IMG/VR virus record: IMGVR_UViG_3300011334_000366
Span: 1 to 28,991 of that record
Length of the DNA: 28,991 nucleotides
Strand: one strand, 5' to 3'
DNA from: a virus
Lineage: Duplodnaviria; Caudoviricetes
The position numbers and the translations under genes are program-made. How positions within the stretch are numbered: the first letter of the stretch is position 1; each line of letters opens with the position of its first letter. The notes under the pieces are model-generated. The model was not told the origin of the DNA. It saw nothing but the letters and a program-made list of their open reading frames with translations, and searched no databases. Shown in pieces: positions 1 through 16,569 of this stretch.

Positions 1-24
1 AGGTCCTGATCCGTGGGGTTGTTC
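1..24 (+). mobile_element. Right half of an attC-like site (attC0), truncated by the window edge
   Basis: CCTG-ATCCGTGGG(9 nt)-GTTGTTC has the same L'-spacer-GTT geometry as the right arm of the complete site at 217-306. The left arm would lie outside the window. Confidence 0.5.
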
Positions 25-44
25 CCAAGGAAGTCTTGCACGAT

Positions 45-206
45 TTAACGCGCTTCGTCTTCGTGGTAGTTTTCCATGTCGCAAGAGAAGATGTCCACAT
101 ACCCAGTCTCCACGGTGCCACGGTGTCCTGCGTGGTATCCGCTGTTGTAGAGGCGCATCGCCATTCTCAGTAGTGCGCTTGGTTGGTCGTCTTGGGGGTC
201 ATTCAT
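45..206 (-). CDS. Small hypothetical protein (53 aa), possibly truncated by a premature stop
   Basis: Not in the ORF track; translated by hand as MNDPQDDQPSALLRMAMRLYNSGYHAGHRGTVETGYVDIFSCDMENYHEDEAR*. The frame stays open after the TAA (IVQDFLGNNPTDQD) into attC0. Confidence 0.55.
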   Translation of the reverse strand: MNDPQDDQPSALLRMAMRLYNSGYHAGHRGTVETGYVDIFSCDMENYHEDEAR

Positions 207-216
207 AATTCAAAGA

Positions 217-306
217 GGCTAACAATAAAAATGCAGGCAACCGCCGAAGGCAGTCTGCGAGTTGAATTACGCCATCGGCGGCGGTGTCTGATTTTTGACG
301 TTAGCC
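217..306 (+). mobile_element. Integron attC-like site (attC1)
   Basis: R'' GGCTAAC (217-223) and R' GTTAGCC (300-306). Arms AAAAAT-[G233]-CAGGCA-[A240]-CCGCCG pair with CGGCGG-TGTCTG-ATTTTT (one G:T), leaving two extrahelical bases 6 bp apart. Confidence 0.8.
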
Positions 307-509
307 GACTCGCGTTGCCAGACGGATACGGCTATTTCTTCCATCTCGCGGGCGGCATCTTCCGCCGTGATTGCTCCGTGGTGATACCATCGCGTATGCA
401 CAGCCTTGATGTCCCGCAGTGCTTGCTCTCGAATCTCCAACCGTCGGCTAACATCTGCGTGCAGCGAACGGCGGGCCTCTGGTTGCTCTGAGTTTGTCGT
501 GTTGTCCAT
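267..509 (-). CDS. Hypothetical cassette protein (80 aa)
   Basis: ATG lies in the loop of attC2 and the stop in the loop of attC1. It starts 5 nt after the RecT-like stop codon. Confidence 0.7.
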   Translation of the reverse strand: MDNTTNSEQPEARRSLHADVSRRLEIREQALRDIKAVHTRWYHHGAITAEDAAREMEEIAVSVWQRESANVKNQTPPPMA

Positions 510-551
510 AGTCTTTAGTGGTTCGCGCCGTCGCTGACGCAGGCGTGCGCT
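446..551 (+). mobile_element. Integron attC-like site (attC2) with a damaged R' end
   Basis: GGCTAAC-ATCTGCGT-[G461]-CAGCGA-[A468]-CGGCG pairs with CGCCG-TCGCTG-ACGCAG (526-542). GTG is found where GTT is expected. Confidence 0.75.
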
Positions 552-1477
552 CCGCCCGCGTTGTCGGCGTGGTATCTCACCTTGTCGGTAGGCTTCATGG
601 CTTCGAGTTGCGTCTTCATGGTTAGGACAGTGCGAAGCTCAATCTCCGTGCAATCGTCGGGATTGTTTCGCGCATCATCAAGAACGCCGTTGTCTAGTAG
701 CGCGCCGTTGATCGCCGTCCACTTCGTCTTGCTTGCGGTTAGCCATGTCTTCACGGCATCTAGCGCGGAGACTTCCGCCTCTTGAAATAATGATGGAGCC
801 TCATTTTGAATTACCACTTGCTGCGAAAGCTCAGCTTGTGGCGAGGCTCCATTCAACGCAGATGGCTGCGGAGATTGGAAAAGTTTTGATGCGCTGGCGG
901 ATGGCGTTACGTCGCGCATTGGCAGGTCTTGTGCCTCTTCCGCTGTCATCATACCCAACGTGATGTCTGGCGCGTAGAGACGGGCAAAGAACGCAGCAGC
1001 GCGGTATCTAAGCATCAGCTCAGGCATCGTGATCCACTTGCTGCCTGCCTTAGTGCTCCAGCCCTCGGCTTTCGCCATTTCTAGCGTGATCTTTGGACCT
1101 TCCAGCGTGGTGCCGTCTGGCTTGCTTTTAGTCCATGCGATACATGCGCGGTTAGGCTTGCCCTCATCTCCGCTCATGGCGAATTGCAGCGGCTCAAAGC
1201 GTCCGGCTGCATTGACCATCGCAATCAGGAACGTGGCGCGAAATGATGGTCGCCCGTGGATAATGTCGATGTTTTGCAAGACCATGAACGGGTCCGCGCC
1301 GAGTCGTTTGGCGATGTTGATGCCGATGGCACAGTTGGCAATGTTGCCCTGAAACTCTTTGGGAACGAGCGAGCTAGATGCAAACATCTTGGCTTGGCGC
1401 TGTAGCATTTCAAAAGCTGCACTTTCGCGCGCAATCTGGGAGTCTGTAATTTCGGTAGTGGTGATTTGTGTGCTCAT
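515..1477 (-). CDS. recT: RecT/Redbeta-like single-strand annealing recombinase
   Basis: Motifs SSLVPKEFQG, LGADPFMVLQNIDIIHGRP and KWITMPELMLRYRAAAFFARLYAPD. Start reassigned to ATG 1477 (MSTQITT), after an AC-rich leader and clear of the upstream gene. Confidence 0.8.
   Translation of the reverse strand: MSTQITTTEITDSQIARESAAFEMLQRQAKMFASSSLVPKEFQGNIANCAIGINIAKRLGADPFMVLQNIDIIHGRPSFRATFLIAMVNAAGRFEPLQFAMSGDEGKPNRACIAWTKSKPDGTTLEGPKITLEMAKAEGWSTKAGSKWITMPELMLRYRAAAFFARLYAPDITLGMMTAEEAQDLPMRDVTPSASASKLFQSPQPSALNGASPQAELSQQVVIQNEAPSLFQEAEVSALDAVKTWLTASKTKWTAINGALLDNGVLDDARNNPDDCTEIELRTVLTMKTQLEAMKPTDKVRYHADNAGGAHACVSDGANH
556..593 (+). mobile_element. Possible orphan right arm of an attC-like site (attC3 remnant)
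   Basis: CGGCGTGGTATCTCACCTTGTCGGTAGGC ends in a degenerate R' (GGTAGGC vs GTTAGGC). No matching left arm is visible; it abuts attC2. Confidence 0.35.
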
Positions 1478-1502
1478 TTTCGTTGTGTGTGTGTTGTTGT
1501 GT

Positions 1503-1847
1503 TTACTTCCCTGCCTTGATGTCTGCGCGGTTCTGAGCCGCTGTCGTTTTGTGCTCATACTGAGCGTCGATGTAGAGTTCCTGCGCCTGATCTTCGCATT
1601 CGTTCCACGCCGATCCTGTGACGATTTCAGTGATGTCTGTGCCGCCAGCAAAGATGCCAAGCACGTTGCCTTTCTTGTGCTCGAAAAACACGCCTGGAAC
1701 GCCGCGCATTGCGTCAAGACTGCTGCCATAGCTAATCTCTGGTGTGTTGCCTCCCAAATCCGTCACGTCAATAAGCGCGGCGATTGCGTTAGCCATAGCC
1801 AGCAGTTGCTCTGGCAGGTCGTTGATATTGGTTCCGTTGATTTTCAT
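1503..1847 (-). CDS. Hypothetical protein (114 aa)
   Basis: ATG at 1847 (MKINGTNIND) follows an AC-rich leader and a promoter-like sequence. Confidence 0.7.
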   Translation of the reverse strand: MKINGTNINDLPEQLLAMANAIAALIDVTDLGGNTPEISYGSSLDAMRGVPGVFFEHKKGNVLGIFAGGTDITEIVTGSAWNECEDQAQELYIDAQYEHKTTAAQNRADIKAGK

Positions 1848-1862
1848 AATGTTGTGTGTGTT

Positions 1863-1891
1863 ATTCTGTTTCAAATTTCTTATCCTGACAA
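1863..1891 (-). promoter_or_regulatory. Sigma70-like promoter
   Basis: Minus strand reads TTGTCA-17 nt-CAGAAT just upstream of ATG 1847. Confidence 0.5.
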
Positions 1892-1976
1892 TCCTGCCAG
1901 CCCTTGTTGTAGGCCGATCGGCGAATGTGATGAATGAGGCGATCCTCAATAATGCCCTGCCGCCAAATGAAGCAGG

Positions 1977-2006
1977 TAAAAGCGGCGGTCGCAAATAGCG
2001 AGCCGC
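1977..2006 (-). terminator. Possible intrinsic terminator after the RHH gene
   Basis: GC-rich hairpin GCGGCTCGC-TATTT-GCGACCGC followed by CGCTTTT. Confidence 0.35.
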
Positions 2007-2033
2007 AAAGAAGGCACAAGATATTTTCCATGC

Positions 2034-2231
2034 TCATTTTGCAGCTCCTTTCTTTGGAGCTTTGTGCTTAAGCAGCGCGGCCATGCGCTCTGATGGTTGG
2101 TTAAGAAGGGCTGGCAGCGCTTCGTGCAGGAGCTGTCCTGCCATGCTGCGACTCTGGAAAGCAGCGGTTTTCTGAATGCGCTCATACACTTCTGGGTGCG
2201 AGCTTAAATCAATGGTGATGCGTGTCTTCAT
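2034..2231 (-). CDS. Arc/MetJ-like ribbon-helix-helix DNA-binding protein
   Basis: MKTRITIDL (alternating beta strand), PEVYERIQKTAAFQ (helix), SRSMAGQLLHEAL (RS turn plus helix), and a basic tail. Confidence 0.7.
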   Translation of the reverse strand: MKTRITIDLSSHPEVYERIQKTAAFQSRSMAGQLLHEALPALLNQPSERMAALLKHKAPKKGAAK

Positions 2232-2232
2232 G

Positions 2233-2460
2233 TTAATTGTTCAAATATTGTTGCTGTGCGTCTTGGACCTCGTTGGTAGGTAGCTTAAGCCACTCGCCCT
2301 CGTCATCAGTGTATTCGATGATGGTTGGAATGTAGCTATTCGGCCCGTTATACTTGCGGACTTGGTTGGAAAACTTGTCTTGTGCAATAACTGCTGCCTT
2401 GAGTGAGCGATGATTGCTCACACTGCGACGGTTAAAGGTATCGTAGATGCGGTATTTCAT
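2233..2460 (-). CDS. Hypothetical early protein (75 aa)
   Basis: ATG at 2460 (MKYRIYDTFNRR) after an AC-rich leader; tightly packed against the RHH gene. Confidence 0.7.
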   Translation of the reverse strand: MKYRIYDTFNRRSVSNHRSLKAAVIAQDKFSNQVRKYNGPNSYIPTIIEYTDDEGEWLKLPTNEVQDAQQQYLNN

Positions 2461-2492
2461 ATTCGTGTTGTGTTTGGTTTCGACTACCCAGG

Positions 2493-2521
2493 ATAGAACC
2501 ACACGTCCTGACCATCGTCAA
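2493..2521 (-). promoter_or_regulatory. Putative early promoter
   Basis: TTGACG-17 nt-TTCTAT with an AT-rich upstream tract. The -35 match is good and the -10 match is weak. Confidence 0.45.
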
Positions 2522-2550
2522 ACACATTCTGCGCATTTTGTGCAAAATAA

Positions 2551-2865
2551 TCATAAATGCAAACAATTGGCAACTAGCTTACTGTTCTGTGTTTGCGTGA
2601 TGAACGACTTCACTTCTGCGATGGCATCAGCATCCTCGTGCTTCGACCATAAGTAATCGCTGCCCCATTGAGCTTTGCGGTCCTCATATTCTGCCCACAG
2701 GACAGCGAGCATTTTATCTCTCGCCGCCAGTTGTCGGGCGATGTCACTCTTAGCGTGCAGTGATTCAGATGTCATCGCGCAGACGTGGCGGATGTAGTGC
2801 TCCCCGAGGCTTTCGGAGTCTTGGGCCGGATACACAGAACCAGCGGCTGGAGAGGAACGGCTCAT
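2551..2865 (-). CDS. Hypothetical cassette protein (104 aa)
   Basis: ATG lies in the attC4 loop. The core HYIRHVCAMTSESLHAKSDIARQLAARD resembles a small phage hypothetical family (recalled, not searched). Confidence 0.7.
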   Translation of the reverse strand: MSRSSPAAGSVYPAQDSESLGEHYIRHVCAMTSESLHAKSDIARQLAARDKMLAVLWAEYEDRKAQWGSDYLWSKHEDADAIAEVKSFITQTQNSKLVANCLHL

Positions 2866-2919
2866 AGCGTTTTGTTGGTGTTTTCGAGGTCGAGCGTTCG
2901 CCGTCCCTCATCCTTACTG
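2585..2919 (+). mobile_element. Integron-like gene cassette inserted at the end of the amidase gene
   Basis: Starts at G^TTCTGTGT (2584-2592), the exact reverse complement of ACACAGAAC (2832-2840) at the attC4 R''. Ends at G^TTATAC (2919). Confidence 0.7.
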
Positions 2920-2925
2920 TTATAC
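2834..2925 (+). mobile_element. Integron attC-like site (attC4)
   Basis: ACAGAAC-CAGCGGCT-[G]-GAG-[A]-GGA-[A]-CGGC ... GCCG-TCC-CTC-ATCCTTACT(9 nt)-GTTATAC. Confidence 0.7.
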
Positions 2926-3495
2926 AGCGCCCTTAAAGCCACAAGCCTCGCGCAGTTTAACCATTGGAAAAGCTGGCCCTGGATCATTCTTTCGGTTAGG
3001 CGCGCAGTCTTCATGACCGATGATGTCATCGAGCTTGTAGTGAGCTACAAGCGCCTTTGCCACCTCTTCCAACGCTGCGATTTGCGCCGGTGGGTATGCT
3101 TCCCACTTTTGCACCGGCCCACCGTTTTTGTGCGCGGCCTTGACCAATGGTAGCTTGCTCCACCGTTTTGCCAGCGCTGCATTGTCACCGGCATTAGCCA
3201 GCTCGATGCCAATAGAGCAGGCGTTTAGACCATCAAAGCCTTTCCACTTGCTCTTGCCTGCGTGACCACACGTTCGGTTAAACGCACGGCATTGATACAC
3301 CTTGCCGTCTCGATCAATGACGATGTGAGCGCTCGCACCATTTGCCTCAAGTGAGCGCCAAAAATTGATGCTGCTGATTGCTGTCGCGCCAGATGTGAAA
3401 TGGATGACGAGAAACCGACGCACCGGCATTGGAGCACCGCCAGGAATCAGCTCGTAGTTTGCGCGGTTGAGGAAATGTTTATCAGTGATTGTCAT
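2920..3495 (-). CDS. N-acetylmuramoyl-L-alanine amidase (Amidase_2/AmpD-like endolysin)
   Basis: Zn-amidase motifs VIHFT, ASAHIVIDRDG, HAGKS, SIGIEL and GHED..PNRKNDPG. Start set at ATG 3495. Confidence 0.92.
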   Translation of the reverse strand: MTITDKHFLNRANYELIPGGAPMPVRRFLVIHFTSGATAISSINFWRSLEANGASAHIVIDRDGKVYQCRAFNRTCGHAGKSKWKGFDGLNACSIGIELANAGDNAALAKRWSKLPLVKAAHKNGGPVQKWEAYPPAQIAALEEVAKALVAHYKLDDIIGHEDCAPNRKNDPGPAFPMVKLREACGFKGAV

Positions 3496-3610
3496 TTTGA
3501 TTTTGCTCCTGTTCACGTTCCGCCGCCCTGTCGCAGCTTATAAATAGCGCAATAACGCCGAGCGCACCGACTGCAAGGAATGCGAATACAATGCCGAAAA
3601 AAGTCATCAT
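3482..3610 (-). CDS. Small membrane protein (42 aa), possibly lysis-associated
   Basis: MMTFFGIVFAFLAVGALGVIALFISC is a single hydrophobic segment; ATGA overlap with the upstream gene. Confidence 0.6.
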   Translation of the reverse strand: MMTFFGIVFAFLAVGALGVIALFISCDRAAEREQEQNQNDNH

Positions 3611-4368
3611 GGTCGGTCGTCGTCCAGCTTGTTGTGGTGTTGCGCGTCCATGAGAATATTCACACACGCGCCGATGTGGGCGAGATGCGACTGCCCGCTT
3701 TCCTTGTCGGTGTCTTCCCGCTCATGCCAAGCGGCTAAGTGGCGATGGATTGCAGAGATGTAAGTCGAGGCACACACGCGAGTCTTGCGCCAGTTCCAAG
3801 GTCCATACTTCTTGTTACCGAGTCCATGCACCCAAGCGACTGCGCGGAGAGCAACGGGAGGCAGCAGCCACATCGGCGCTTTAGTCTTGCCAATCTCGCC
3901 CTTCGGATCGGTGCCGATTGGAGCGACTGTTGATGCTGGCTCGCGATTGAGCAGGTCGCGGCATGCTTGGCCGATTGCCCCGCCCCATTGTGCCAACTCC
4001 TCAAGACTGCGGTCCGGCGTTGGCGGAACAAGCGCAGGCGTGCCGCTTGGCACCTCCTCAAAATGCACAGGAATCCCGCGCCATTCGGCAAGCGCGACCT
4101 CTGCCGATGCGCCTTTGCTTTGCTCCCATCCTGCCAGCGCGTAGAGCGCGTCAACGTGCATCACTGCGTCAATGTCACGACGCATTGCATCGCGTAAAAA
4201 CTCCGGCGTGACGATGCCGTCATCAGGATCAAAACCAAGATCACGATCCATGTCGGCGGGGCTAATCACATTCCAGTCGCGTTCCAGGTAGTCGCGCGCA
4301 GCGTCAAAGGCTGGAAAGTTGAACTCTGGATAGCCCGTCATCGGGCCAGCAATGTAGATCGAGCGCAT
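3607..4368 (-). CDS. Fusion of DUF4406 (nucleoside deoxyribosyltransferase-like) and DUF5664-type dATP/dGTP diphosphohydrolase domains
   Basis: N-terminus IYIAGPMTG..FNFPAF..GWEQSKGASAE; C-terminus GNKKYGPWNWRK..HLAAW..DKESGQSHLAH; Pro-rich linker between them. Confidence 0.82.
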   Translation of the reverse strand: MRSIYIAGPMTGYPEFNFPAFDAARDYLERDWNVISPADMDRDLGFDPDDGIVTPEFLRDAMRRDIDAVMHVDALYALAGWEQSKGASAEVALAEWRGIPVHFEEVPSGTPALVPPTPDRSLEELAQWGGAIGQACRDLLNREPASTVAPIGTDPKGEIGKTKAPMWLLPPVALRAVAWVHGLGNKKYGPWNWRKTRVCASTYISAIHRHLAAWHEREDTDKESGQSHLAHIGACVNILMDAQHHNKLDDDRP

Positions 4369-5351
4369 TAGTAAACCCTCCCGTTAATGATTTTGTGATT
4401 CGTGACCTCGTAGTTGCCATCGGCTTGAGTTTCCACCCAAACGAATCCATGATTCCAGCGATTAACGATGGCGTAATCAGGCGAGAGGTCGCAAAGGCAA
4501 CCAGTGCTCCAGCATGACGAGAGCTTTTTGTTAAGCCCTGTGCTTTCGGTGTGCTCGCTAGTGCGGTGCCAGTGCCCGCAAATCAACGACTCTTGCACAC
4601 GCATCCAAATGCCACGCGCAGGATTGACGGGTGACGACATGCCCTGTGGCAGTTCGTGTCCGTGGTAGATTGGCAGGTTGCCTAACCGAATGAGCGTCAG
4701 AGATGGGACAAGCTCAATCTGTAGCTCATCGAACTTGAGCAACACGGGAAGCTCAAAGTCAGACACGCCAAGAAGCACTGGCGCATTCTTAACCAAAAAC
4801 ATTTCCATGCGTGCCTCATGGTTGCCGATCTTGTAGAGGATTCGAGCCTTCGGAAACTGAGCGCGAAGGTGGAAAAGGAACTGGCGGATCGCGTCTAACT
4901 CGTCGGATAGCGAGCGGCGCGGGTCTTTATCGTGACGGCTTACTCCATAGAAATCGCCGATGTCGCCATTCAGAATAACCACATCCGGCTTCTTCTTTTT
5001 GCCGTGTGCGATGGCGGCAGCAACGGCAACCTCATCGTGATACGGAATGTGGATGTCTGATAGAATCAGCACCTTCAATGCACCGTCGAGAACGACTGGC
5101 TTGCGTGAGGTAGCCTGAGTTTTTGGCATAATGTTCTTCTGCCAGCCGAGCGGCTTGAATGCCGATTTATCGACAATATACTTTTTCTGCTTGGCTCCCG
5201 ATGCTCCCCGCGCAAGACGCACTGTGTTTCTCGCATTCTCTAGCGACGGAAACACCTTCGGATTTTCCTTGAACATCACACGTGCAAGCGTGCGGTTTTC
5301 CACGTCGGGAAAGCGTGCGATAAATTCTCTAGCGATTTCTGTCTTAGTCAT
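4368..5351 (-). CDS. Calcineurin-like metallophosphoesterase
   Basis: All five motifs are present: SDIH, GDIGD, GNHE, HGH, GHWH. Start set at ATG 5351 (MTKTEIAREF). Confidence 0.9.
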   Translation of the reverse strand: MTKTEIAREFIARFPDVENRTLARVMFKENPKVFPSLENARNTVRLARGASGAKQKKYIVDKSAFKPLGWQKNIMPKTQATSRKPVVLDGALKVLILSDIHIPYHDEVAVAAAIAHGKKKKPDVVILNGDIGDFYGVSRHDKDPRRSLSDELDAIRQFLFHLRAQFPKARILYKIGNHEARMEMFLVKNAPVLLGVSDFELPVLLKFDELQIELVPSLTLIRLGNLPIYHGHELPQGMSSPVNPARGIWMRVQESLICGHWHRTSEHTESTGLNKKLSSCWSTGCLCDLSPDYAIVNRWNHGFVWVETQADGNYEVTNHKIINGRVY

Positions 5352-5359
5352 GTGGTTTG

Positions 5360-5602
5360 TTAGCTGTCGGTTTTTCTGTATCCCTGCTTCCAGAGCGCGT
5401 GGCCCATGATGCGGCCCGCGTGTAAAACTTGCGCCTCGCTCCAATCGGGAGCAAGATGATGAAGAATTTCATGGCAGACAACCTCAAGGCGTTTCTTTCC
5501 CTTCAGCCGTGAGTCGATCTCAATCGTGCCATCGCTCCAGCAAAGCCCATGAGCGCCATGTTTGCCAAGTTTGCGCTCTGTTATGGTCGGCGGCTTCGGC
5601 AT
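5360..5602 (-). CDS. Small zincin-like metallopeptidase domain protein
   Basis: HEILH (HExxH) preceded by GLC..GTIEID. Start set at ATG 5602. Confidence 0.72.
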   Translation of the reverse strand: MPKPPTITERKLGKHGAHGLCWSDGTIEIDSRLKGKKRLEVVCHEILHHLAPDWSEAQVLHAGRIMGHALWKQGYRKTDS

Positions 5603-5610
5603 GGGTAGAA

Positions 5611-5859
5611 TCACTGTGCCCTGCCAATGGTTAGAGCGCGGGTAAATGCTGCCTGTGAATAAAGTTTCTCGCCTGTGGCTTTCCAACGTCCTTCAAGAAA
5701 CTGATACTCTGTGCCTTCAACGCTTGTCATCGAGGTCGGCGTGTAAAGTGCTGATGAGTTTAGTGAGGACTCTGCGCTCTTTGTCGAGAGCTTCGATTTG
5801 CAGGAGATTAGACTCAGTAGCGCCAATAGACAGATGGAGCATTTCACGATCAATTTCAT
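5611..5859 (-). CDS. Lipoprotein, candidate o-spanin (Rz1-like)
   Basis: Basic N-terminus, hydrophobic core and LISC lipobox; overlaps the upstream gene out of frame within the lysis region. Confidence 0.6.
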   Translation of the reverse strand: MKLIVKCSICLLALLSLISCKSKLSTKSAESSLNSSALYTPTSMTSVEGTEYQFLEGRWKATGEKLYSQAAFTRALTIGRAQ

Positions 5860-5941
5860 GCAGTCGTTGGAAAGGTTTTGATGCGTTCACCGCTAGCCAA
5901 ACTCTCAAGGCTAGCTTGATGAGTTCAACGATTCCGATCAT
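5717..5941 (-). CDS. Candidate i-spanin (Rz-like) or small membrane protein
   Basis: Hydrophobic N-terminus followed by a helical charged region; ATGA-coupled to the holin-like gene. Confidence 0.5.
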   Translation of the reverse strand: MIGIVELIKLALRVWLAVNASKPFQRLHEIDREMLHLSIGATESNLLQIEALDKERRVLTKLISTLHADLDDKR

Positions 5942-6114
5942 ACACCTGTCTTGTCACCGTCTTTAGCAGCCACTAGTCCAAGGCTAACTAACAAACCAAC
6001 AACCGTTGCCAGTTCGTCAGCGTATTGTGGTAGCCAAGTAGCCGTGATGATAGCAGCAATGCTAACAACACCAGCGAGAGTCGTTTTCCAGTTCTTGAGT
6101 AGGTAGGTTTTCAT
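5938..6114 (-). CDS. Holin-like membrane protein (58 aa)
   Basis: Not in the ORF track: MKTYLLKNWKTTLAGVVSIAAIITATWLPQYADELATVVGLLVSLGLVAAKDGDKTGV. Two TM segments; ATGA overlaps on both sides. Confidence 0.75.
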   Translation of the reverse strand: MKTYLLKNWKTTLAGVVSIAAIITATWLPQYADELATVVGLLVSLGLVAAKDGDKTGV

Positions 6115-8004: not shown

Positions 8005-11000
8005 TTACTCGCTCAGACGCTTTTGGATTTTGCGAGCTTCGCGCAACACGTTAGCGCCGACATCGACAGCGCCACCAGCAGGGCCAATGGCGGCAGACAT
8101 GCCAGCGCCTAAAGCCGTAGAAGATGAATCGAGCGCATCCATGAAATCGTCGGCATCGTCTGGATTGAAAAGCTCATCCATGTTCTTGCCGCCTTTAAGC
8201 AGGTCATTTGCAACTTTACTTGCAAGGTCATCGGCTGGAAACACGCGAAGGCCAAGCAATCCACGGCCTATCTTGTCAGCTAGTCGGCCAAACACAAACA
8301 GTCCATTGATGGGGCCGAGAGCAAGCGCAAGCGTCCACTGTTCACGACTGAGTTCGCGATCACGATCTTCATCGTCACCAAGCAGCGAGGCTATTACGAC
8401 CGCCATCACCTGCGACACGCCAGCTTGCACAAAATGAGCCACAAATGCCCGCTGAATATCCAGCGTCTTGTTCTTCGATTTGCCCGTTGCCAGCCTGCGA
8501 ATTGCCATCAGCTCAATTGCCAGCGCCTTCCGTTGGTCAGAGACAAACATCGACATCGACTTCATAAACGGATTGCCAGACCGTTCACTGAGCGACCGAG
8601 CGTAAACGTCGGAAGGTTGCGCTGAGGTAGCGATCATTTTCTCTACTCGTGCAATGGCTTTGGCATCAGCGATCTCTGGCGTCATTTGCGAATTGTCGCG
8701 CATGTATCCACGACGGTAGTAGTCAAACGAAATGGCAGCACCTAACGCCGTCCATCCGCCGTCAACCATACTCATCGGCATCATGCCCGCTTGCATGGCA
8801 ACGATGGCTTGCGAGCCTGTCATGCCTGCGCCCTGCATTGCCACGCGAGATTCAGCCGAGAATCCTGCTTCAATGCGGCGTCTAATGATGTCAGATGACC
8901 ACATTGCCGAGACTTCCTTGGCAAACGACTGCGGCTCTATAAATGCGCGAGCCATGCCCATCATGTAGTTATGAGCAGGCACGTCAGCAATCAGCGGATT
9001 TAACAGCGCCGGTGTCTGCTTAATGATAGGCGAAAGGCGGAAGGCCAAGCCTTTGTATGAGCGGTATTGCATGAACCAGCGCCAGACTCGCGAGATGTTT
9101 ACAAGCTCGCTGGCTGAGTTCGTGCCGTTTTTCTCAATTGTTTTGACGTCATCTTTTAGCCTTTGCAGATAGCCCTCACTTTTCTTTTGGCGAATAGCAA
9201 CTGCGGTGTCCTTGTCCAGCAAGATAGCCTTCATGTCGCGCATGAGTTCAGCGTGCGAAACCCAGTGCGATACATTTTCCCAATGCGCCAGGAACACGGC
9301 TAGCGCGTCCATCTCAACAAGTGAAGCCGTCGTGTTGACGCGAGCCTTTACAAAGCCAGCAGCAAGTCCACTGTTCATGTCAGAGCCATCAATATCCATA
9401 ATGTCTCCGCCCGTGCTCATATTGCGCCGATGGATTGGCGAATAGTTCTTAATGCGTGGGAGTGGTGCGTTAAAGAGCTTGCGGTAAATTGGATCAATCA
9501 TGCCAGCCGCATCTTGATAGCTGCCAGAAATCCAGCGGCCCAAAGCCTTAGCCTCTGGCGATAGGAATTCTTCAAGCTGTTTGAAGCTATCGGCATCCCA
9601 ACCGTCGCGCTCCATTTGTTTACGGCTAGCATCCTGCATCGACCAGAGCCACCATTGAATACCTTGCGTCTCGCTCATTGTGCGTTCAACCGGCGTGCCT
9701 GCGTTGACCACCTTTTCAATAGTCACCGTGCTCTTGCGTGCGTTTGCGGCAAACTCTTCAAGCGCTGCATCTACTTCGTATTGCTCAAGCCCTGCCGTCT
9801 CCGCGCTCATAGTGCCGTCATTGAGCTTTGTCAGCGTCTCAATATCGAGCTTCACCTCCTCTTTTTTCACTCGGCGCGTGGAGATTCCAGACTGCTTAAC
9901 CTTTTGCAATTCAGCAATACCGCGAGCGTGAGCAAATTTGCTGTCAGAGTTAAAGATGATCGAAAGCGCATCCTTTTTCTGAGCTTCAACCAGCCGCTTA
10001 ATGTCAGTCGAAAGGTTGGCCGCATTGATAATCTTTTCCGCAAAGTAATTCAGAATCTTAGAGTCTTCGCCAAAGATCAGTTCAAGCCGCTGGATTGTAG
10101 TCCATAGCGCCTCGCTCAACATTCCGCGCAGATTAAGCAGCGCACGCTTAAAGACGCCCTTGTTCAAGTTCGTGATGTTGTCGGCAACGTCAGGATTCAA
10201 CTCGTCACCGGCAAGGATAGACGATTGCGCCGATTGACGCATCTCGGTAAGCATTTCTTTGCGCGCTTCGTCAATGATCTTCTTGCCGAGCTTGCCAGCT
10301 TCGATGGTGTCATTAAGCCAGTTAAAAGCAGACTCGCGGGAAGCTGAGTCTTTGTCGCTATACATGTCAAACAAGCGAGCGATGCCAAGTTTCGTTAGCG
10401 CATCCTGCACCTCGTTGGCGTCTTCTGATTCCTCAGCCTTCTTCTCAAGCGCGGCCTGCCTGTCGGATTGCTCTTCGATGCCCAGCTTAATGAACTCGGC
10501 AGCGTAATCGACCTGCTCCGTAGCTGTGGAGATGATCTTTCCAGTGATGCGCCCGCTTGCGTCCTTCTGCGATTTGAAGCGCTTTAGAAGCTTGTCGGTA
10601 GCCTCGCCATACTGATCCTTGAGATGCTTCTCCAGCAACACCTGGCCGCGCTCAAGCTGCTTCTGCAGCACCTTCAACCGTGCCGACTCCGATGCCTTGC
10701 GAGCCAGCGCAACAAATCCGCCGATCTTTCCACGGATCTCCTGCGGGAACATGGCAATGATAGCTTCCAGGGTAATGAGATCGCGCACCAGCGATTCGCG
10801 CGGCGACCAGTCTTCTTTCTGCATTGCGTCTGTCTCGTTGCGCCATGCTTGCGCTTCTTTACGAGCTTGCTCAAACGCTGCTCTTTCAACAGCCTTGACC
10901 GCATCTTCAGCCTTAGCATAGCCAGCCTTTGCCGTGCGATGGGATTTAATGGATGACTCCAAAGCCGCCCACATTTCGGAGGCGTAATCAAAGCCGAGAT

Positions 11001-14000
11001 TGTTTGCCATCACGTCAGGCATAATGCCACCAGCCCTTGCGTAAAACTGAGGAGGCAACCATCCAGCATCGTCATACTGATCTTTAATGCCGCGCCCTTC
11101 ACGTTCAGCCGTAGCCTTCGACATGAGCTTCCCGTTGTCGTTGAGCATCCTTGCAATCAACGGGTCATCCTGAAGCGTGCCAACGCCTTCAGAATACGCC
11201 AGCAGCGTTTCAGTCGTGAGCTTATCCATACCCTCATGGGTAAGCTCAACCTCGCGTTGCGCCTGCCGCATAGCCTGCTCCTTGTCCAATGACTTCACCG
11301 TGCGCTTCTCGCTAATCGGCCTGATCTTATTGCCTTGCGGTGTCCAGCGCTCGTTACTCCACTTGTCAGCAAGCTTGGCAAACTGGCGAATTACGCGAGA
11401 TTTGACCTTAAGCGCGCCGACTGGGTTCTCTGCAAACTGCTTCTCTACTTGGTCGCTGAGTTCGTTTAGGTTGCGGACGGGTGAGATACTGAAGGATTGA
11501 CCTGCAAATTCTGGCGTTTCGCCATTTGCCCAACGTGTCAGCAATCCGTTTACTTTGCCCCATTTGCCGCCATTTAACTGCATTGATGAACGGTTTCTAG
11601 CATCGTCCTCAAGGTCAATATAAGCACCGTCAGCAGCCACAACAATAGATTTAAGCACAGACGCTTGAGCCGCCGTAATTTTAGCTCGACTGTGCATTGA
11701 AATCATGCCGCTTCTAGCATCAACACGAACAGCACCAAGGCGAAGAAAACCGACCATGCGTTCCCAATTCTCTTGGTAATCAGGCATATCCTGCCATTCA
11801 ATTTCGCGATGATCAACGCCTCGTTGATCCTTCATCCAATCGCGCCCACTGACAACCCTAAAAACCAAGTCTGGCCCTTGTTTAAAATCTCCAACATCAG
11901 CGCGCCCCGTAAAATCAAGCATCGTTCCATCTGGCAAAACGTAGCCAGCCTCATAAATTGAGCGCGTGATACCATGGCGTTTTTTAACTTCTGCAAAAAT
12001 GTCAGCGGCAGGCTTTCCGTTGATGGATGGAGCAACCTTATTTTCTGGCGTGATGCGCTCTTCTTCTGAGACGCGTGAGATGCTAAACCGAATGTCAGGC
12101 GTTGCCTCGTTAAACCGTTGAGATAGCGGGATGATGTTGCCTGCATCGTCATAGGTTATTGGGTCGGCGGATTTGATTTGGTCTGGCTTAAAGACAGCAT
12201 AATGATTTGATGGCCGATTATTTAGATTAACGGCATCATCTAAATTCTTGAACAAAACGCCAGTTTTTCCAGCACGTTGAGCTTTGAGAAGCTGATTTGT
12301 GATACCCTTATCAGTATCTCCATCACTCAATTCTTGTGGAGTTTTGCCTTTAGCATCAAACTCTAAAAAGTCACCCTTTAGATAAGTGGAAACTACTTTA
12401 GCAGATTCACGGCGTTTAAGAGCAGATTCATAATTGTCTAAGCTTTCAGCCTCTTGTATAGCAGCATCATAACCGTCCCAATCGCCACGCTTTTCAGCCA
12501 ATTCAGCTTTTTTAAGCGCATCTTTTACTGGGCCTTCTTCTGCTGCATAAACTGCATAAGCCTTTGCGGTCGCTTCGTCATCCGTAAAGAAAAAAGCAAT
12601 CTTTGCGCTCTTGGCGTCTGTGCTAGAACCTCCTCTTTTTTTATCAAAGATAGAAAACTCTGCACCAGTTCCGTGATAAAGCTTTGGAGAGTTATAACCA
12701 GCACTCATTGCCAATTGATCAACCAACCTCTGAGCCGTCTCAGTATCACCAGCCTTAGCAGCAGCGAGATACTCAGCGTCTTGCGCGGGCGAGATGGAGA
12801 AGGTCGGGACTGAATCCACCTTCTGCCCATTCTTCTCAAGAATCTTCACAAGGTTCTCGTCGAAGATGACATAGTTGCTCGTGCCATCACCTGCTGCGCG
12901 ACTGCCGCCATCGAGGTAACGGATGCCAGGGATACCGATGGATGCTAAATGTTCAGATGCTGCTTTTGCGATTTCTTCCGGCGTGGCCTTGCCTTGCAAT
13001 CCTTTAACCAGTTTGTAAAAGCCAGCGCCACTTCCATTAGCTTCCTCCAACTGCATTTCTATCGCTGCATCCATGTTAATAGGCGAGCGATTGAAGCCAA
13101 GCCTCACGGCTTCTCTTCGCTGCCTTTCCTCAAGCGCTAAAAGTTTCTCGCGTGTCGTTGTCGCAAGCGTAGCCATTAATTCCGAGGCAGCGTCTCTAAC
13201 CTTCTCGTTCTGCTCTGAAAGCGGCTTGTCCCAATCAAGGAACTCATCCTCGTCTGGCAGTAGCTCGACGGTGTAGAGATTGCCGCCCGTTTCTGTTTTA
13301 ATAAAATTGCCGTAATCTTTTTCTACTTGTCTGGCAAATAATACACTAGGAGTAGGAGGATCCTTGGACATCATGTCGCCATAAGTAGCGCCAAGAAATG
13401 CTTTCCTAACGCTGTCTCCCTGCGATCCGTATTGTGTATTACCCGCTACAGATTCAAGCCTTAACTGAAGCCTCGCTGCTTCATCGTTGTTCGGATAAAG
13501 CTCTGTTAGAGTTTTGCCGTTAAACCCTATGCGAAACTCTTTCTGTAATTTGCCTCTGTAATCATCAGCAACCTTAAAGCTCTTTGCAAAGTAAAGACCC
13601 CAGCCAAAAGCTTGCGCGCCTTCACCTGTGCCAATATTTGCCATGCGAAAGCGATCTATTTCATGCGGCGTGCCGTGGTAGACTTCAATGGAGAACGTAG
13701 TCGGGCCAACGAGTTGCGCCCCGTCTGGCATCTCGGTGACGTTGGATGTGTCAGCAGGTTGTGCGCGGCTTGTGCTAAACGCCATATTCCCAGCATCAAT
13801 CACCGCCTGCGTTTCCTCGTCGATGCCAAGCATTGCCCTGCCCTCATCAATAGCTTGCGACTCCATTTGCTTTACCTCGTCAATGCCGAGGACTTTATTG
13901 ATAAAAGTGTCGTATTCCTCACCGAGCTTGCCCTCGTCGCGAGCTTTGGTGATAGCGTCCACCGTGCCAAATACGCCCTTAAGGTAGGCGGTAAACGCCT

Positions 14001-16569
14001 TGATTGCAGCCAGAATGCTTTTCAGTGCGCTGGCCTCTTCTTGGGTATTAGCGCCCATGACAGATGCTTCGATGGCGCGAGAGATTGAGCCTGGCTTCAT
14101 GCCTGTGGCGCGGCCTTGTCGATCACGTCCAAGCACGTCACGAATGACCATCTCAGACACGGTTTCGCGCAGCATGGTTTCATTGCCTTGACCGTTCGCT
14201 AGCGTGCGCAGATTGGCGATGAATTGCGCCTCTTCGGCGTTCAGTGCCGTCACGCCTTCAAATGCTGGCAGCAATGCGCCCATCGCCCTGCGTGTCTCCT
14301 GATCTGAGAACGTGCCGTTTGTCATGCCGAGCCTCCAAGTCGATTCAAAGCTCTCATGCAGGAAAGTGATGACCTGCGGCTGGCCTTCAGACTGCGACTT
14401 GTAGAGATTCATCTGGCGGACAATCTCCTTTGCGCCATCAGCCACGCGCATCGGAAAGACCTCATTGGAGCCGTTGATGTGAGCAAAGACGCCCTGCGTG
14501 CCTGTCTTAATGCCAGCGACTTCCGCCTCTGCGCGGACGGTTTCGAGAGCTTGAGGGCCAAGCTGACGTTGGGAGAGGATAGCGCCGCCAGCATCGCGAC
14601 GAGTAGCCACAACTCCAACCGCTTCAATATTAGACGCTTGAACAGTCTCGCCCGTAAGCACGGTTTCGGCCTGCTTGCCCTGCTCGTAATAGCCATCAAT
14701 CACGCTCACCAGCGTATCGGCTTCCTCTTGGCTTCCGACTTGGCGAAGATCAACCGCAATACGGCGAGCGGCTTCGGCAGATTCCACGGGAATGATCGTT
14801 CCTTCGCCGGTCGTCACCTGCCAGCCCGTAGGCGTGCGCGTGACGCTTGCGGTATATTCTGGCGAGGTTGTTTGCAATCCCTCGGCGCTCACTTGCTCTT
14901 TTTGCAGTCCCCTCAGACGTTCAGCCGCTTGCATCCTCTGCTCTGCCGTTGCTTTGACCTGCGCCACATTATCACCCTTAGCGTTAATCTTTGCCCAATC
15001 GCCGCGCATCGCATCCTCCGCCTCGCTCCATTTACCAGCGTTTGCCAGCTCGCTGATTTTAGCGGCGGATTCAGGCGAATACTGAGCAGCAATCAGCATG
15101 TCAGTCGAGCGTGCCATTTGACGGCCTGCGCGGAAGTCTGACAACTGACCAGTCCCAGCGCCCACAATTGCGAGCGGAAGGATGGTTGAAATCAATTCTG
15201 GCATATTCTGCGCAAACTCACCAAGGAAGCCGTCCCAGTCAGAGCCTGGAATGTCGCTGTTTAACGCACTTGCAATGCTTTGAACTGCCATCGGAGTGAT
15301 GCCTTGCGCGAACTCTTCGCCGACTTCCGTTGCCGTGCCGATTGCCGCCCGTGTCGTAAACATAGAAAGCGCGCCCGTTGCGCTAAAGATTGGCTGAGTA
15401 AACGCACGTTTTAGATTTGGAAGCCTGCCAAATAGGAAGCGATCAGATGCAATTTCTGTAATTGCCTGAATTGGTGCAGAGATAGTAGCAATAGTGTTCG
15501 CGGCATCGCGTGACATCGTTGGATTACTCCGACGAATCTCGTTGTAAGTTGAACGCTGAAAGCTGCCAAGCGTAACAGCCGCGCCCACATAGGGAATAAA
15601 CGATCCGATTGTCATTGGGATGTTTTGAACGGCTCCGCTAATATTCATTCCAGCAAACTCAACGGCCTTTAGCTTTGCAAGATTTCCAATCGAAATTTCA
15701 CGGACATCATCGCGCAAATCCATGTAATCGCCAACTGCTGAAGATGCCGCCAAAACTTCGCCGCTTTGAGCATCTGTAAGAAATAGATTGTTCTTTGCCG
15801 ATGCCTCAATGTCAGACATGGCTACACCAAGAACCGAGCTTGCCGCTGAATCTAAATAACTGCCCAAAAAACGATCAAACTCTTTTGCTAACCTTTGAAC
15901 TGACGATGCGGCAGCAAAATCACTGCCAGCCGCTTGATTTGAAATTGCCTCAAGAACATAGGGGCGATCCTCTTTTGGCACCTTGATTAACTCGCTAGCC
16001 ATCGCGCCCCAGTTCATGCCATCTGGCGCGGTGTCGATATTGCGCGCCATGTCCGTCACGGTTTTAATTGTATTGCGATACGGCGCAACCTTTGCGGCCA
16101 TTTCGTCGTGAGCAGCGCGCGCAAGGCCGAGATAGTTAGTCATTCTGCCTGGAAGCATAGAGCCTGCATTTGCCGTCTCCACTTCGCGAAACTTGCCGAG
16201 CCACGATTCACCGCGAGCGGCAGCAATTCGGGATGCGTTTGCAATTTTGTCTTGCGCCTGATAATCGGCGGCAATCATTCCAAACATGTCGTTATCTGAA
16301 ACATTCGATGCCGCTTGATTCTTAAAGTAGCCACGAGCTATGCCATCCTTAATGCCTTGCCATTCTGGTGACGCAGGATTGACGTGACGATTCAAAGCAA
16401 CGCCAGCCCATCCAGCAACAGCGGAAGACGTGAGAAACGCCTCCTTATCCTCAACCGCTCCGCCAAATGTATTATCATCTAGCAACGCCTTAGCGCCCCC
16501 AAACTCTTGATCTAAAAACGCAGATCGTAAACGCTTGCTGCGTTCTTGTGAGATTTCTTCGGGTGTCAT
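8005..16569 (-). CDS. Giant internal virion/ejection protein (gp16 position); polyvalent protein with two ADP-ribosyltransferase-like modules
   Basis: 2854 aa, third of the ejection-protein trio. ART-like motifs YHGTPH..GWGLYFA and YHGTG..AFFFTDD..QIKSAD; an AGYVLPDG..DHREI module; a degenerate zincin-like LHESFE. Confidence 0.82.
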   Translation of the reverse strand: MTPEEISQERSKRLRSAFLDQEFGGAKALLDDNTFGGAVEDKEAFLTSSAVAGWAGVALNRHVNPASPEWQGIKDGIARGYFKNQAASNVSDNDMFGMIAADYQAQDKIANASRIAAARGESWLGKFREVETANAGSMLPGRMTNYLGLARAAHDEMAAKVAPYRNTIKTVTDMARNIDTAPDGMNWGAMASELIKVPKEDRPYVLEAISNQAAGSDFAAASSVQRLAKEFDRFLGSYLDSAASSVLGVAMSDIEASAKNNLFLTDAQSGEVLAASSAVGDYMDLRDDVREISIGNLAKLKAVEFAGMNISGAVQNIPMTIGSFIPYVGAAVTLGSFQRSTYNEIRRSNPTMSRDAANTIATISAPIQAITEIASDRFLFGRLPNLKRAFTQPIFSATGALSMFTTRAAIGTATEVGEEFAQGITPMAVQSIASALNSDIPGSDWDGFLGEFAQNMPELISTILPLAIVGAGTGQLSDFRAGRQMARSTDMLIAAQYSPESAAKISELANAGKWSEAEDAMRGDWAKINAKGDNVAQVKATAEQRMQAAERLRGLQKEQVSAEGLQTTSPEYTASVTRTPTGWQVTTGEGTIIPVESAEAARRIAVDLRQVGSQEEADTLVSVIDGYYEQGKQAETVLTGETVQASNIEAVGVVATRRDAGGAILSQRQLGPQALETVRAEAEVAGIKTGTQGVFAHINGSNEVFPMRVADGAKEIVRQMNLYKSQSEGQPQVITFLHESFESTWRLGMTNGTFSDQETRRAMGALLPAFEGVTALNAEEAQFIANLRTLANGQGNETMLRETVSEMVIRDVLGRDRQGRATGMKPGSISRAIEASVMGANTQEEASALKSILAAIKAFTAYLKGVFGTVDAITKARDEGKLGEEYDTFINKVLGIDEVKQMESQAIDEGRAMLGIDEETQAVIDAGNMAFSTSRAQPADTSNVTEMPDGAQLVGPTTFSIEVYHGTPHEIDRFRMANIGTGEGAQAFGWGLYFAKSFKVADDYRGKLQKEFRIGFNGKTLTELYPNNDEAARLQLRLESVAGNTQYGSQGDSVRKAFLGATYGDMMSKDPPTPSVLFARQVEKDYGNFIKTETGGNLYTVELLPDEDEFLDWDKPLSEQNEKVRDAASELMATLATTTREKLLALEERQRREAVRLGFNRSPINMDAAIEMQLEEANGSGAGFYKLVKGLQGKATPEEIAKAASEHLASIGIPGIRYLDGGSRAAGDGTSNYVIFDENLVKILEKNGQKVDSVPTFSISPAQDAEYLAAAKAGDTETAQRLVDQLAMSAGYNSPKLYHGTGAEFSIFDKKRGGSSTDAKSAKIAFFFTDDEATAKAYAVYAAEEGPVKDALKKAELAEKRGDWDGYDAAIQEAESLDNYESALKRRESAKVVSTYLKGDFLEFDAKGKTPQELSDGDTDKGITNQLLKAQRAGKTGVLFKNLDDAVNLNNRPSNHYAVFKPDQIKSADPITYDDAGNIIPLSQRFNEATPDIRFSISRVSEEERITPENKVAPSINGKPAADIFAEVKKRHGITRSIYEAGYVLPDGTMLDFTGRADVGDFKQGPDLVFRVVSGRDWMKDQRGVDHREIEWQDMPDYQENWERMVGFLRLGAVRVDARSGMISMHSRAKITAAQASVLKSIVVAADGAYIDLEDDARNRSSMQLNGGKWGKVNGLLTRWANGETPEFAGQSFSISPVRNLNELSDQVEKQFAENPVGALKVKSRVIRQFAKLADKWSNERWTPQGNKIRPISEKRTVKSLDKEQAMRQAQREVELTHEGMDKLTTETLLAYSEGVGTLQDDPLIARMLNDNGKLMSKATAEREGRGIKDQYDDAGWLPPQFYARAGGIMPDVMANNLGFDYASEMWAALESSIKSHRTAKAGYAKAEDAVKAVERAAFEQARKEAQAWRNETDAMQKEDWSPRESLVRDLITLEAIIAMFPQEIRGKIGGFVALARKASESARLKVLQKQLERGQVLLEKHLKDQYGEATDKLLKRFKSQKDASGRITGKIISTATEQVDYAAEFIKLGIEEQSDRQAALEKKAEESEDANEVQDALTKLGIARLFDMYSDKDSASRESAFNWLNDTIEAGKLGKKIIDEARKEMLTEMRQSAQSSILAGDELNPDVADNITNLNKGVFKRALLNLRGMLSEALWTTIQRLELIFGEDSKILNYFAEKIINAANLSTDIKRLVEAQKKDALSIIFNSDSKFAHARGIAELQKVKQSGISTRRVKKEEVKLDIETLTKLNDGTMSAETAGLEQYEVDAALEEFAANARKSTVTIEKVVNAGTPVERTMSETQGIQWWLWSMQDASRKQMERDGWDADSFKQLEEFLSPEAKALGRWISGSYQDAAGMIDPIYRKLFNAPLPRIKNYSPIHRRNMSTGGDIMDIDGSDMNSGLAAGFVKARVNTTASLVEMDALAVFLAHWENVSHWVSHAELMRDMKAILLDKDTAVAIRQKKSEGYLQRLKDDVKTIEKNGTNSASELVNISRVWRWFMQYRSYKGLAFRLSPIIKQTPALLNPLIADVPAHNYMMGMARAFIEPQSFAKEVSAMWSSDIIRRRIEAGFSAESRVAMQGAGMTGSQAIVAMQAGMMPMSMVDGGWTALGAAISFDYYRRGYMRDNSQMTPEIADAKAIARVEKMIATSAQPSDVYARSLSERSGNPFMKSMSMFVSDQRKALAIELMAIRRLATGKSKNKTLDIQRAFVAHFVQAGVSQVMAVVIASLLGDDEDRDRELSREQWTLALALGPINGLFVFGRLADKIGRGLLGLRVFPADDLASKVANDLLKGGKNMDELFNPDDADDFMDALDSSSTALGAGMSAAIGPAGGAVDVGANVLREARKIQKRLSE

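Follow-up and report, generated by a model that had tools for sequence, protein, structure and literature searches.

Probable integron-type cassettes in a phage record, with genes that run antisense to attC sites and end inside them

Sites of the attC type have already been published in phages that lack an integrase (Qi et al. 2023, PMC9892861), and five of the six phage sites tested there were recombined by the integron integrase IntI1. Those sites, with their methyltransferase cargo and their clusters of attC sites lacking integrases (CALINs), resemble the elements reported here, whereas the complete integrons of the same paper are captured bacterial ones in temperate phages. The portions of its text that were available describe no antisense polarity, frame lock or loop starts, although its figures and Dryad files could show antisense cases among the 17 CALINs. 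Both tested sites of phage TJE1 are sense to their genes, and P12002L has one sense and one antisense. The promoter early stem-loop (PeSL) cassettes of T4-type phages (PMC2839356) likewise have repeated structured elements between small variable genes, modular shuffling and small circles; PeSLs, however, are promoter and terminator elements, whereas the phage sites described here are built like attC, sit within reading frames and are joined at one set triplet. Here, we analyse IMGVR_UViG_3300011334_000366, a virus record of 28,991 nt (the whole record is the window, about 76% complete). Its genes occupy the strand opposite to that of bacterial cassettes, so the attC hairpins lie inside reading frames. 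Judged from sequence, these are likely integron-type cassettes that are cut and rejoined at G^TT by an integron integrase. Literature searches, which covered few subscription papers, returned no description of such an inverted, translated layout; accessible parts of PMC9892861, PMC2839356, PMC5027507, PMC5371416, PMC8946536 and PMC8352920 served for comparison.

AAC (R″) and GTT (R′) cores around an imperfect palindrome are present in two sites, the intact attC1 (217..306, + strand; R″ 217-223, R′ 300-306, crossover G300^T301) and attC3 (2834..2925, +; R″ 2834-2840, R′ 2919-2925), whose loop holds ATG 2865 and an A/C-rich leader. A third site, attC2 (446..551, +; R″ 446-452), is damaged: the loop contains the stop of a RecT-like gene (515-517) and ATG 509, and the right core at 545-547 is GTG rather than the GTT assigned by an initial annotation of this DNA. 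The structural detector of this analysis, controlled with 40 shuffles of positions 1-6000, scored both attC1 and attC2 at 14.5, and none of the 40 shuffles gave a hit of at least 14. It missed attC3 on the + strand because of one L-box mismatch and scored it 12.5 on the minus strand. The + polarity is indicated by unpaired bases on the left arm and by L-boxes TGCAG/CTGA and TGGAG/CTCA that resemble bacterial sites; the extrahelical bases on one arm were called by the detector in attC1 and attC2, and in attC3 by eye and family signature only. For attC3, polarity is based on this family signature, a 9-nt R-box complementarity and an empty allele.

Two sites had escaped the initial annotation: a worn attC-type site at 2493..2590 (+), which received no score from the structural detector, and the right arm of one more attC-type site, truncated where the contig ends (1..24, +; R′ GTT 18-20, attC1-like arm spacing). 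In the loop of the worn site, the stop of a 104-aa gene overlaps the ATG (ATGA) of a 40-aa frame. A remnant arm and part-loop of another attC, with an intact look-alike in L522, is fused to attC2 at 552..593 (+). With at least two attC sites no more than 3 kb apart and no intI, the record qualifies as a CALIN; three of its six sites are degenerate, and the putative integron system of this phage is partly worn. All 37 genes lie on the minus strand, as called by the simple gene caller of this analysis (not Prodigal), on which all strand and frame counts below rest. The annotation had read the sites on + against minus-strand genes, placed ATG 509, ATG 2865 and the stops at 267-269 and 515-517 inside attC loops, and assigned the peptides ARRSLHADVSR, NVKNQTPPPMA and MSRSSPAAGSV to site arms, all of which held. 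Ordinary phage genes fill 594-2490, so the cassettes do not form one continuous array.

Cassette A (245 nt; 301..545, +) consists of a gene body plus attC2, and cassette B (335 nt; 2585..2919, +) of a 257-nt body between two R-box triplets plus attC3, its target being the worn site, with crossover G2584^T2585. The 80-aa open reading frame (ORF) of cassette A (267..509, minus) draws residues 1-20 from attC2 and residues 70-80 from attC1, and the 104-aa ORF of cassette B (2551..2865, minus; weak phrog_34533 match) draws residues 1-9 from attC3 and residues 94-104 from the worn site. The 5′ ends of cassettes A and B are complementary to their own R″ flanks (attC2 and attC3) over 10 and 9 nt, respectively, whereas the sites in place reach 7 and 3 nt. 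Complementary cassette ends are expected of units that have passed through a circle. One contig of run X9 skips exactly 335 nt (2577 to 2913; nine letters fit either side), and one contig of run X13, from another study, also lacks cassette B, with the worn site kept in both empty alleles. The missing unit is the body plus attC3, in agreement with + polarity; both contigs differ from the record beside the joint and are therefore taken as empty alleles from related phages, which does not demonstrate excision in this genome. This comparison covered 4 of the 20 runs, in which no joint lacking cassette A was seen. The locus thus shows what defines a cassette, namely a unit from the TT of one core to the G of its own attC, with complementary ends and present or absent as a whole (an empty allele being found for B only). 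It departs from the usual layout of an ORF on the top strand and complete within the cassette, in that both ORFs are on the bottom strand and stop in the neighbouring site.

The annotation had predicted that similarity among homologues would end at the crossover Asn codon and that the C-terminal tail and stop would come from the neighbour. A search with the 104-aa protein gave 41 loci (11 viral, 30 metagenomic), including eight close homologues; with the near-duplicates L002=L003 and L309=L310 set aside, the family comprises seven distinct sequences, that of the record included. Across these loci the 40 nt leading up to the AAC are 70-98% identical, identity drops to 15-55% beyond it, and a different site and tail follow in each; one homologue has AAA instead of AAC. 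The stop overlaps the next ATG in the loop in L002 and L005. For the 80-aa protein no viral locus was found, so the junction test relies on eight protein homologues without DNA, four of which end in PN plus a different tail, two of which stop near there and two of which carry other tails. Similarity thus breaks off at the predicted codon in both families, each with different arm-coded tails. A reciprocal case comes from G005, a relative with structural genes 83-85% identical, in which an 87% copy of attC1, both of its cores worn, sits between two different genes. The incoming gene there ends in the same tail as in the record, KNQTPPPMA, and since this tail is found on a different gene it belongs to the site.

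The 53-aa ORF (45..206, minus; no PHROG or Pfam match) meets the AAC of the 1-24 site as Asn. Its stop at 45-47 is absent (A47C) in contigs of runs X9, X11 and X14, where a longer ORF is read as Asn into that site. Its start lies 11 nt outside attC1, in exception to the rule of loop starts. The sequences show gene bodies ending at the crossover AAC, read as Asn, with a tail of 5-30 residues and a stop coming from the next site. As to cargo function, neither the 80-aa nor the 104-aa protein has a significant Pfam match, and the best Atlas match is 0.89, to unnamed clusters, with none at 0.9 for the 104-aa protein. Among the more distant 104-aa homologues, 8 of 33 loci show attC sites antisense to the gene. 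These loci (L322, L325, L329, L330, L332-L334 and L336) are dense antisense arrays with a different attC arm type, which suggests that the layout may span host groups.

To examine how general this polarity is, a search with arm motif A yielded 88 loci in viral contigs and, in 4 of 64 parts of the bacterial genomes, 129 loci; sites were then kept if they had both AAC and GTT. Antisense orientation was found for 33 of the 37 viral sites left (32 of 35 by locus), whereas 43 of the 49 bacterial sites were sense (36 of 42 by locus; Fisher p 2e-13, a value that overstates independence because the sites share ancestry). Titles of the bacterial matches are mostly Verrucomicrobiota and Planctomycetota, a hint at the host group. 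Cassettes of this bacterial type share with the phage ones their arm motifs, bulge side, AAC/GTT cores and complementary ends; their genes occupy the top strand at 43 of 49 sites and mostly stop short of the site, whereas the bottom-strand phage genes cross the crossover in frame, take a tail and a stop from the site and often start from it. For a second motif, searched in 45 of 64 parts, all 19 viral sites (in 19 of 120 loci) were antisense. When genes were called with the sites masked, 44 of the 45 that cross the AAC did so in the Asn frame, and 13 more stop at the AAC. Whatever gene comes in, a stop in the Asn frame occurs in 74 of 80 antisense viral sites compared with 6 of 43 sense bacterial sites; in the other two frames of the antisense viral sites the counts are 27 and 33 of 80. 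ATGA is likewise present in 41 of 80 antisense viral loops and in 5 of 43 sense bacterial loops. Together with the junctions described above, this rule across viral contigs supports the neighbour as the source of tail and stop. Overall, the inverted layout is real, above chance and general among phages, a variant of the integron cassette whose recombination and translation are presumed.

Two other explanations were weighed. Passive uptake of ordinary host cassettes or stray attC sites, with gene overlap arising as read-through after chance fusion, would suit the accidental look of the RecT tail, where a deletion joined RecT to a worn site, and the classical sense cassettes of the published phage TJE1. 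It is nonetheless very improbable, being contradicted already by strand (a polarity opposite to bacterial sites of the same motif), by the Asn-frame lock and by the in-frame stops; moreover, the antisense cargo includes phage-type methyltransferases and DUF1643. Four viral-collection contigs (L118, L532-L534) carry sense attC arrays and may be host integron DNA. We regard as next to negligible the idea that the hairpins act at the RNA level, as terminators or signals for translation, and only resemble attC. The location of the sites at gene boundaries, holding stops, leaders and starts, would agree with such a role, but it leaves unexplained the AAC/GTT cores with one-sided bulges, the arm motifs common to bacterial integron arrays and the DNA junctions at the cores, and Rfam gave no match over positions 1-4000.

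Long sites also offer an in-frame ATG with an A/C-rich leader. All seven distinct 104-aa loci have an in-frame upstream ATG within the site region; L002 lacks the GTG that is the sole alternative outside, and the first internal ATG falls inside the conserved domain, so the loop ATG is likely the start in this family. Gene leaders in the record are mostly G-poor and A/C-rich (mean G 0.16 versus 0.28 for other ATGs). The leader of ATG 2865 has A+C 0.85 and G 0.10, that of RecT A+C 0.95 and that of ATG 509 A+C 0.65, one of the points that make the loop-start case weaker for ATG 509 than for ATG 2865. Across the survey loop starts fit 22 of 59 outgoing genes in the site-masked calls, and, where an open ATG is on offer, the blind frame agrees with the loop ATG at 6 of 6 long and 9 of 9 array sites; for the second motif the count is 4 of 5. 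A loop start everywhere was rejected, as short sites under a loose definition gave 11 of 38 against 8.6 by chance. The proposal that each cassette carries its own start therefore survives in part: loop starts exist, but short motif-A sites are at chance level and the start-bearing site is itself swapped. L001 and L004 are 98% identical over the 257-nt body and 37% in the 30 nt of arm before it, and four arm types occur on one 104-aa body. In L004 and L309, by contrast, one site stays with the body although the surroundings differ, as in classical cassettes. Gene-attC linkage is kept in L004/L309 and L389/L413 and broken between the record and L001, L002 and L311 and in five other pairs; in a wider pairwise test, five pairs share the R″-side flank although their sites are only 56-72% alike.

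In classical integrons, intI lies on the bottom strand at the 5′ end of the array, and phage intI, where present, does the same. A tyrosine recombinase was found in 8 of 36 virus records, and three of these 36 carry an IntI that exceeds the TIGR02249 cut-off of 265, at 272, 290 and 275, downstream of antisense arrays of 9, 8 and 2 sites. In these records (L339, L340 and L341, from G027, G008 and G019), a full-length IntI is encoded in a co-directional early operon beside the array. Every one of their 19 detected sites is antisense, with intI placed after the array and sharing the strand of the genes. Relative to attC, this position after the array is the classical one; only the orientation of the cargo is flipped. 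For comparison, IntI is over the cut-off in two of five bacterial genomes with sense arrays. The intI of G019 starts about 35 nt past the core of the last cassette, and a possible attI lies between them (L472, about 9975-10010). The GenBank phage Rctr41k was considered as support and rejected, having one site in 12.6 kb that scores 18.5 sense versus 15.5 antisense; its IntI (383 bits; L548:4680-5678) is annotated xerD, with an ambiguous attC 2.7 kb downstream.

For the mechanism, we propose that the sites are likely recombined at G^TT by an integron integrase that comes from the host or from a co-infecting phage, while phage transcription would run along the bottom strand, towards the intI position in phages that have one. 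Any body placed before any site would then end correctly and pass ribosomes to the next gene. Loop stop and start would be translationally coupled, a step that the ATGA overlaps and stop-start gaps of 1-5 nt would fit. Since the start-bearing heads swap, a second route would be needed besides the G^TT crossover, either top-strand recombination at R″ or RecT-type annealing of related arms. Were replication to proceed in the direction of transcription, the recombinogenic strand would serve as template for the lagging strand, a situation that favours folding and excision (PMC5371416).

Annealing alone forms a rival account, in which the sites are integron-derived but now act as PeSL-like homology linkers, a phage RecT-type annealing protein swaps the genes and no integrase is needed today. 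This is unlikely, although much could be read in its favour: a site can change on both flanks, hybrids have their joints within loops or arms (L005; 22 nt of arm are common to L329 and L330), the 335-nt skip falls within a 9-nt direct repeat, a RecT gene adjoins, most complete carriers are without an integrase and the attC1 copy of G005 has lost both cores. Unrelated sites, however, are only 37-70% alike over the 30 nt next to the junction, and the bodies end at the triplet nonetheless; cassette ends show R-box complementarity, and IntI-coding phages bear the same arrays.

Several observations weigh against the main reading. No PF00589 match to a tyrosine recombinase was found in the record, 76% complete as it is, which is thus not a complete integron, and among nearly complete records two of ten have such a recombinase and eight do not. 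Top-strand cutting by IntI at R″ is 1000-10000 times rarer for classical sites (PMC5027507), and start-bearing sites nevertheless swap. attC2 and attC3 fold no better than shuffles (z −1.5/−0.6 and −0.1/+0.5, respectively, versus −4.8/−4.0 for attC1), and the core of attC2 is GTG. Both empty contigs come from related phages, with 13 and 21 differences on the amidase side at a likeness floor of 88, and the 9-nt direct repeat flanking the empty allele means that the joint is not pinned to G^TT. Long-loop viral sites are mixed, 13 of 25 being antisense and 12 sense (eight of these from one contig). Loop starts in short motif-A sites number 3 of 11 against 3.7 by chance, and the 80-aa gene has a TTG (440-438) beyond the hairpin that might serve as its start instead, with Met there in four of eight homologues.

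A broader proposal, to which we give slightly less than an even chance, is a phage-run integron system with a bottom-strand cassette pool and a frame-locked crossover, in which attC would provide exchangeable tail, stop, leader and start modules swapped at both R boxes, with the phage's own IntI in some lineages and a borrowed one elsewhere. Such a system would drive phage mosaicism in a site-specific way, would remodel the ends of proteins as well, and might be a route to the making of cassettes. Integrons are seen as bacterial devices in which the choice of strand puts promoterless genes under one promoter. A large phage pool of opposite polarity, with a fixed frame and in-site stop and start, would name a mechanism for part of phage mosaicism and account for the low-complexity, variable termini that many small phage proteins have. 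Two questions would become testable: the use of host integrases by virulent phages, and how a gene gets or changes its attC.

The RecT-like single-stranded DNA annealing protein beside cassette A (515..1477, minus; phrog_561 E 1e-73) ends in 25 aa encoded by the site, whereas its relatives have a short tail, end shortly after residue 295 and are followed by an exonuclease (C-termini of 30 of 80 inspected). RecT had been thought to cross the attC2 crossover into this tail; instead, it diverges from its relatives at 594, about 49 nt before the attC2 core, at a second worn site (587-593), and the remnant at 552-593 supplies most of the foreign tail. A search of viral contigs for the fused remnant gave 0 matches, and the L522 look-alike was met among other retrieved loci. 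An X9 contig spans the RecT-remnant joint, which is therefore not an assembly error. In G005, about 6 kb (exonuclease, a 734-aa protein, an SSB-like protein and others) separates RecT from the cassette region, so the phage studied here has undergone a large deletion or rearrangement. RecT-neighbourhood loci L012-L091 gave just two detector hits, both doubtful.

Between RecT and the worn site lie four ordinary small phage genes (1503..2460, minus), which are not cassettes and form syntenic blocks in G005; the structural detector found no attC between them. On the other side of cassette B, the TAA stop (2920-2922) of an amidase endolysin (2920..3495, minus) overlaps the crossover from outside, so this gene borrows no site-coded tail. 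A PHROG profile search shows that the record encodes podovirus-like head, portal and tail genes besides the amidase and the RecT-like protein. Positions 3607-4368 encode two fused domains, one nucleoside 2-deoxyribosyltransferase-like and the other dATP/dGTP pyrophosphohydrolase-like, and a 2854-aa protein with only faint PHROG matches is encoded amid the virion genes at 8005-16569.

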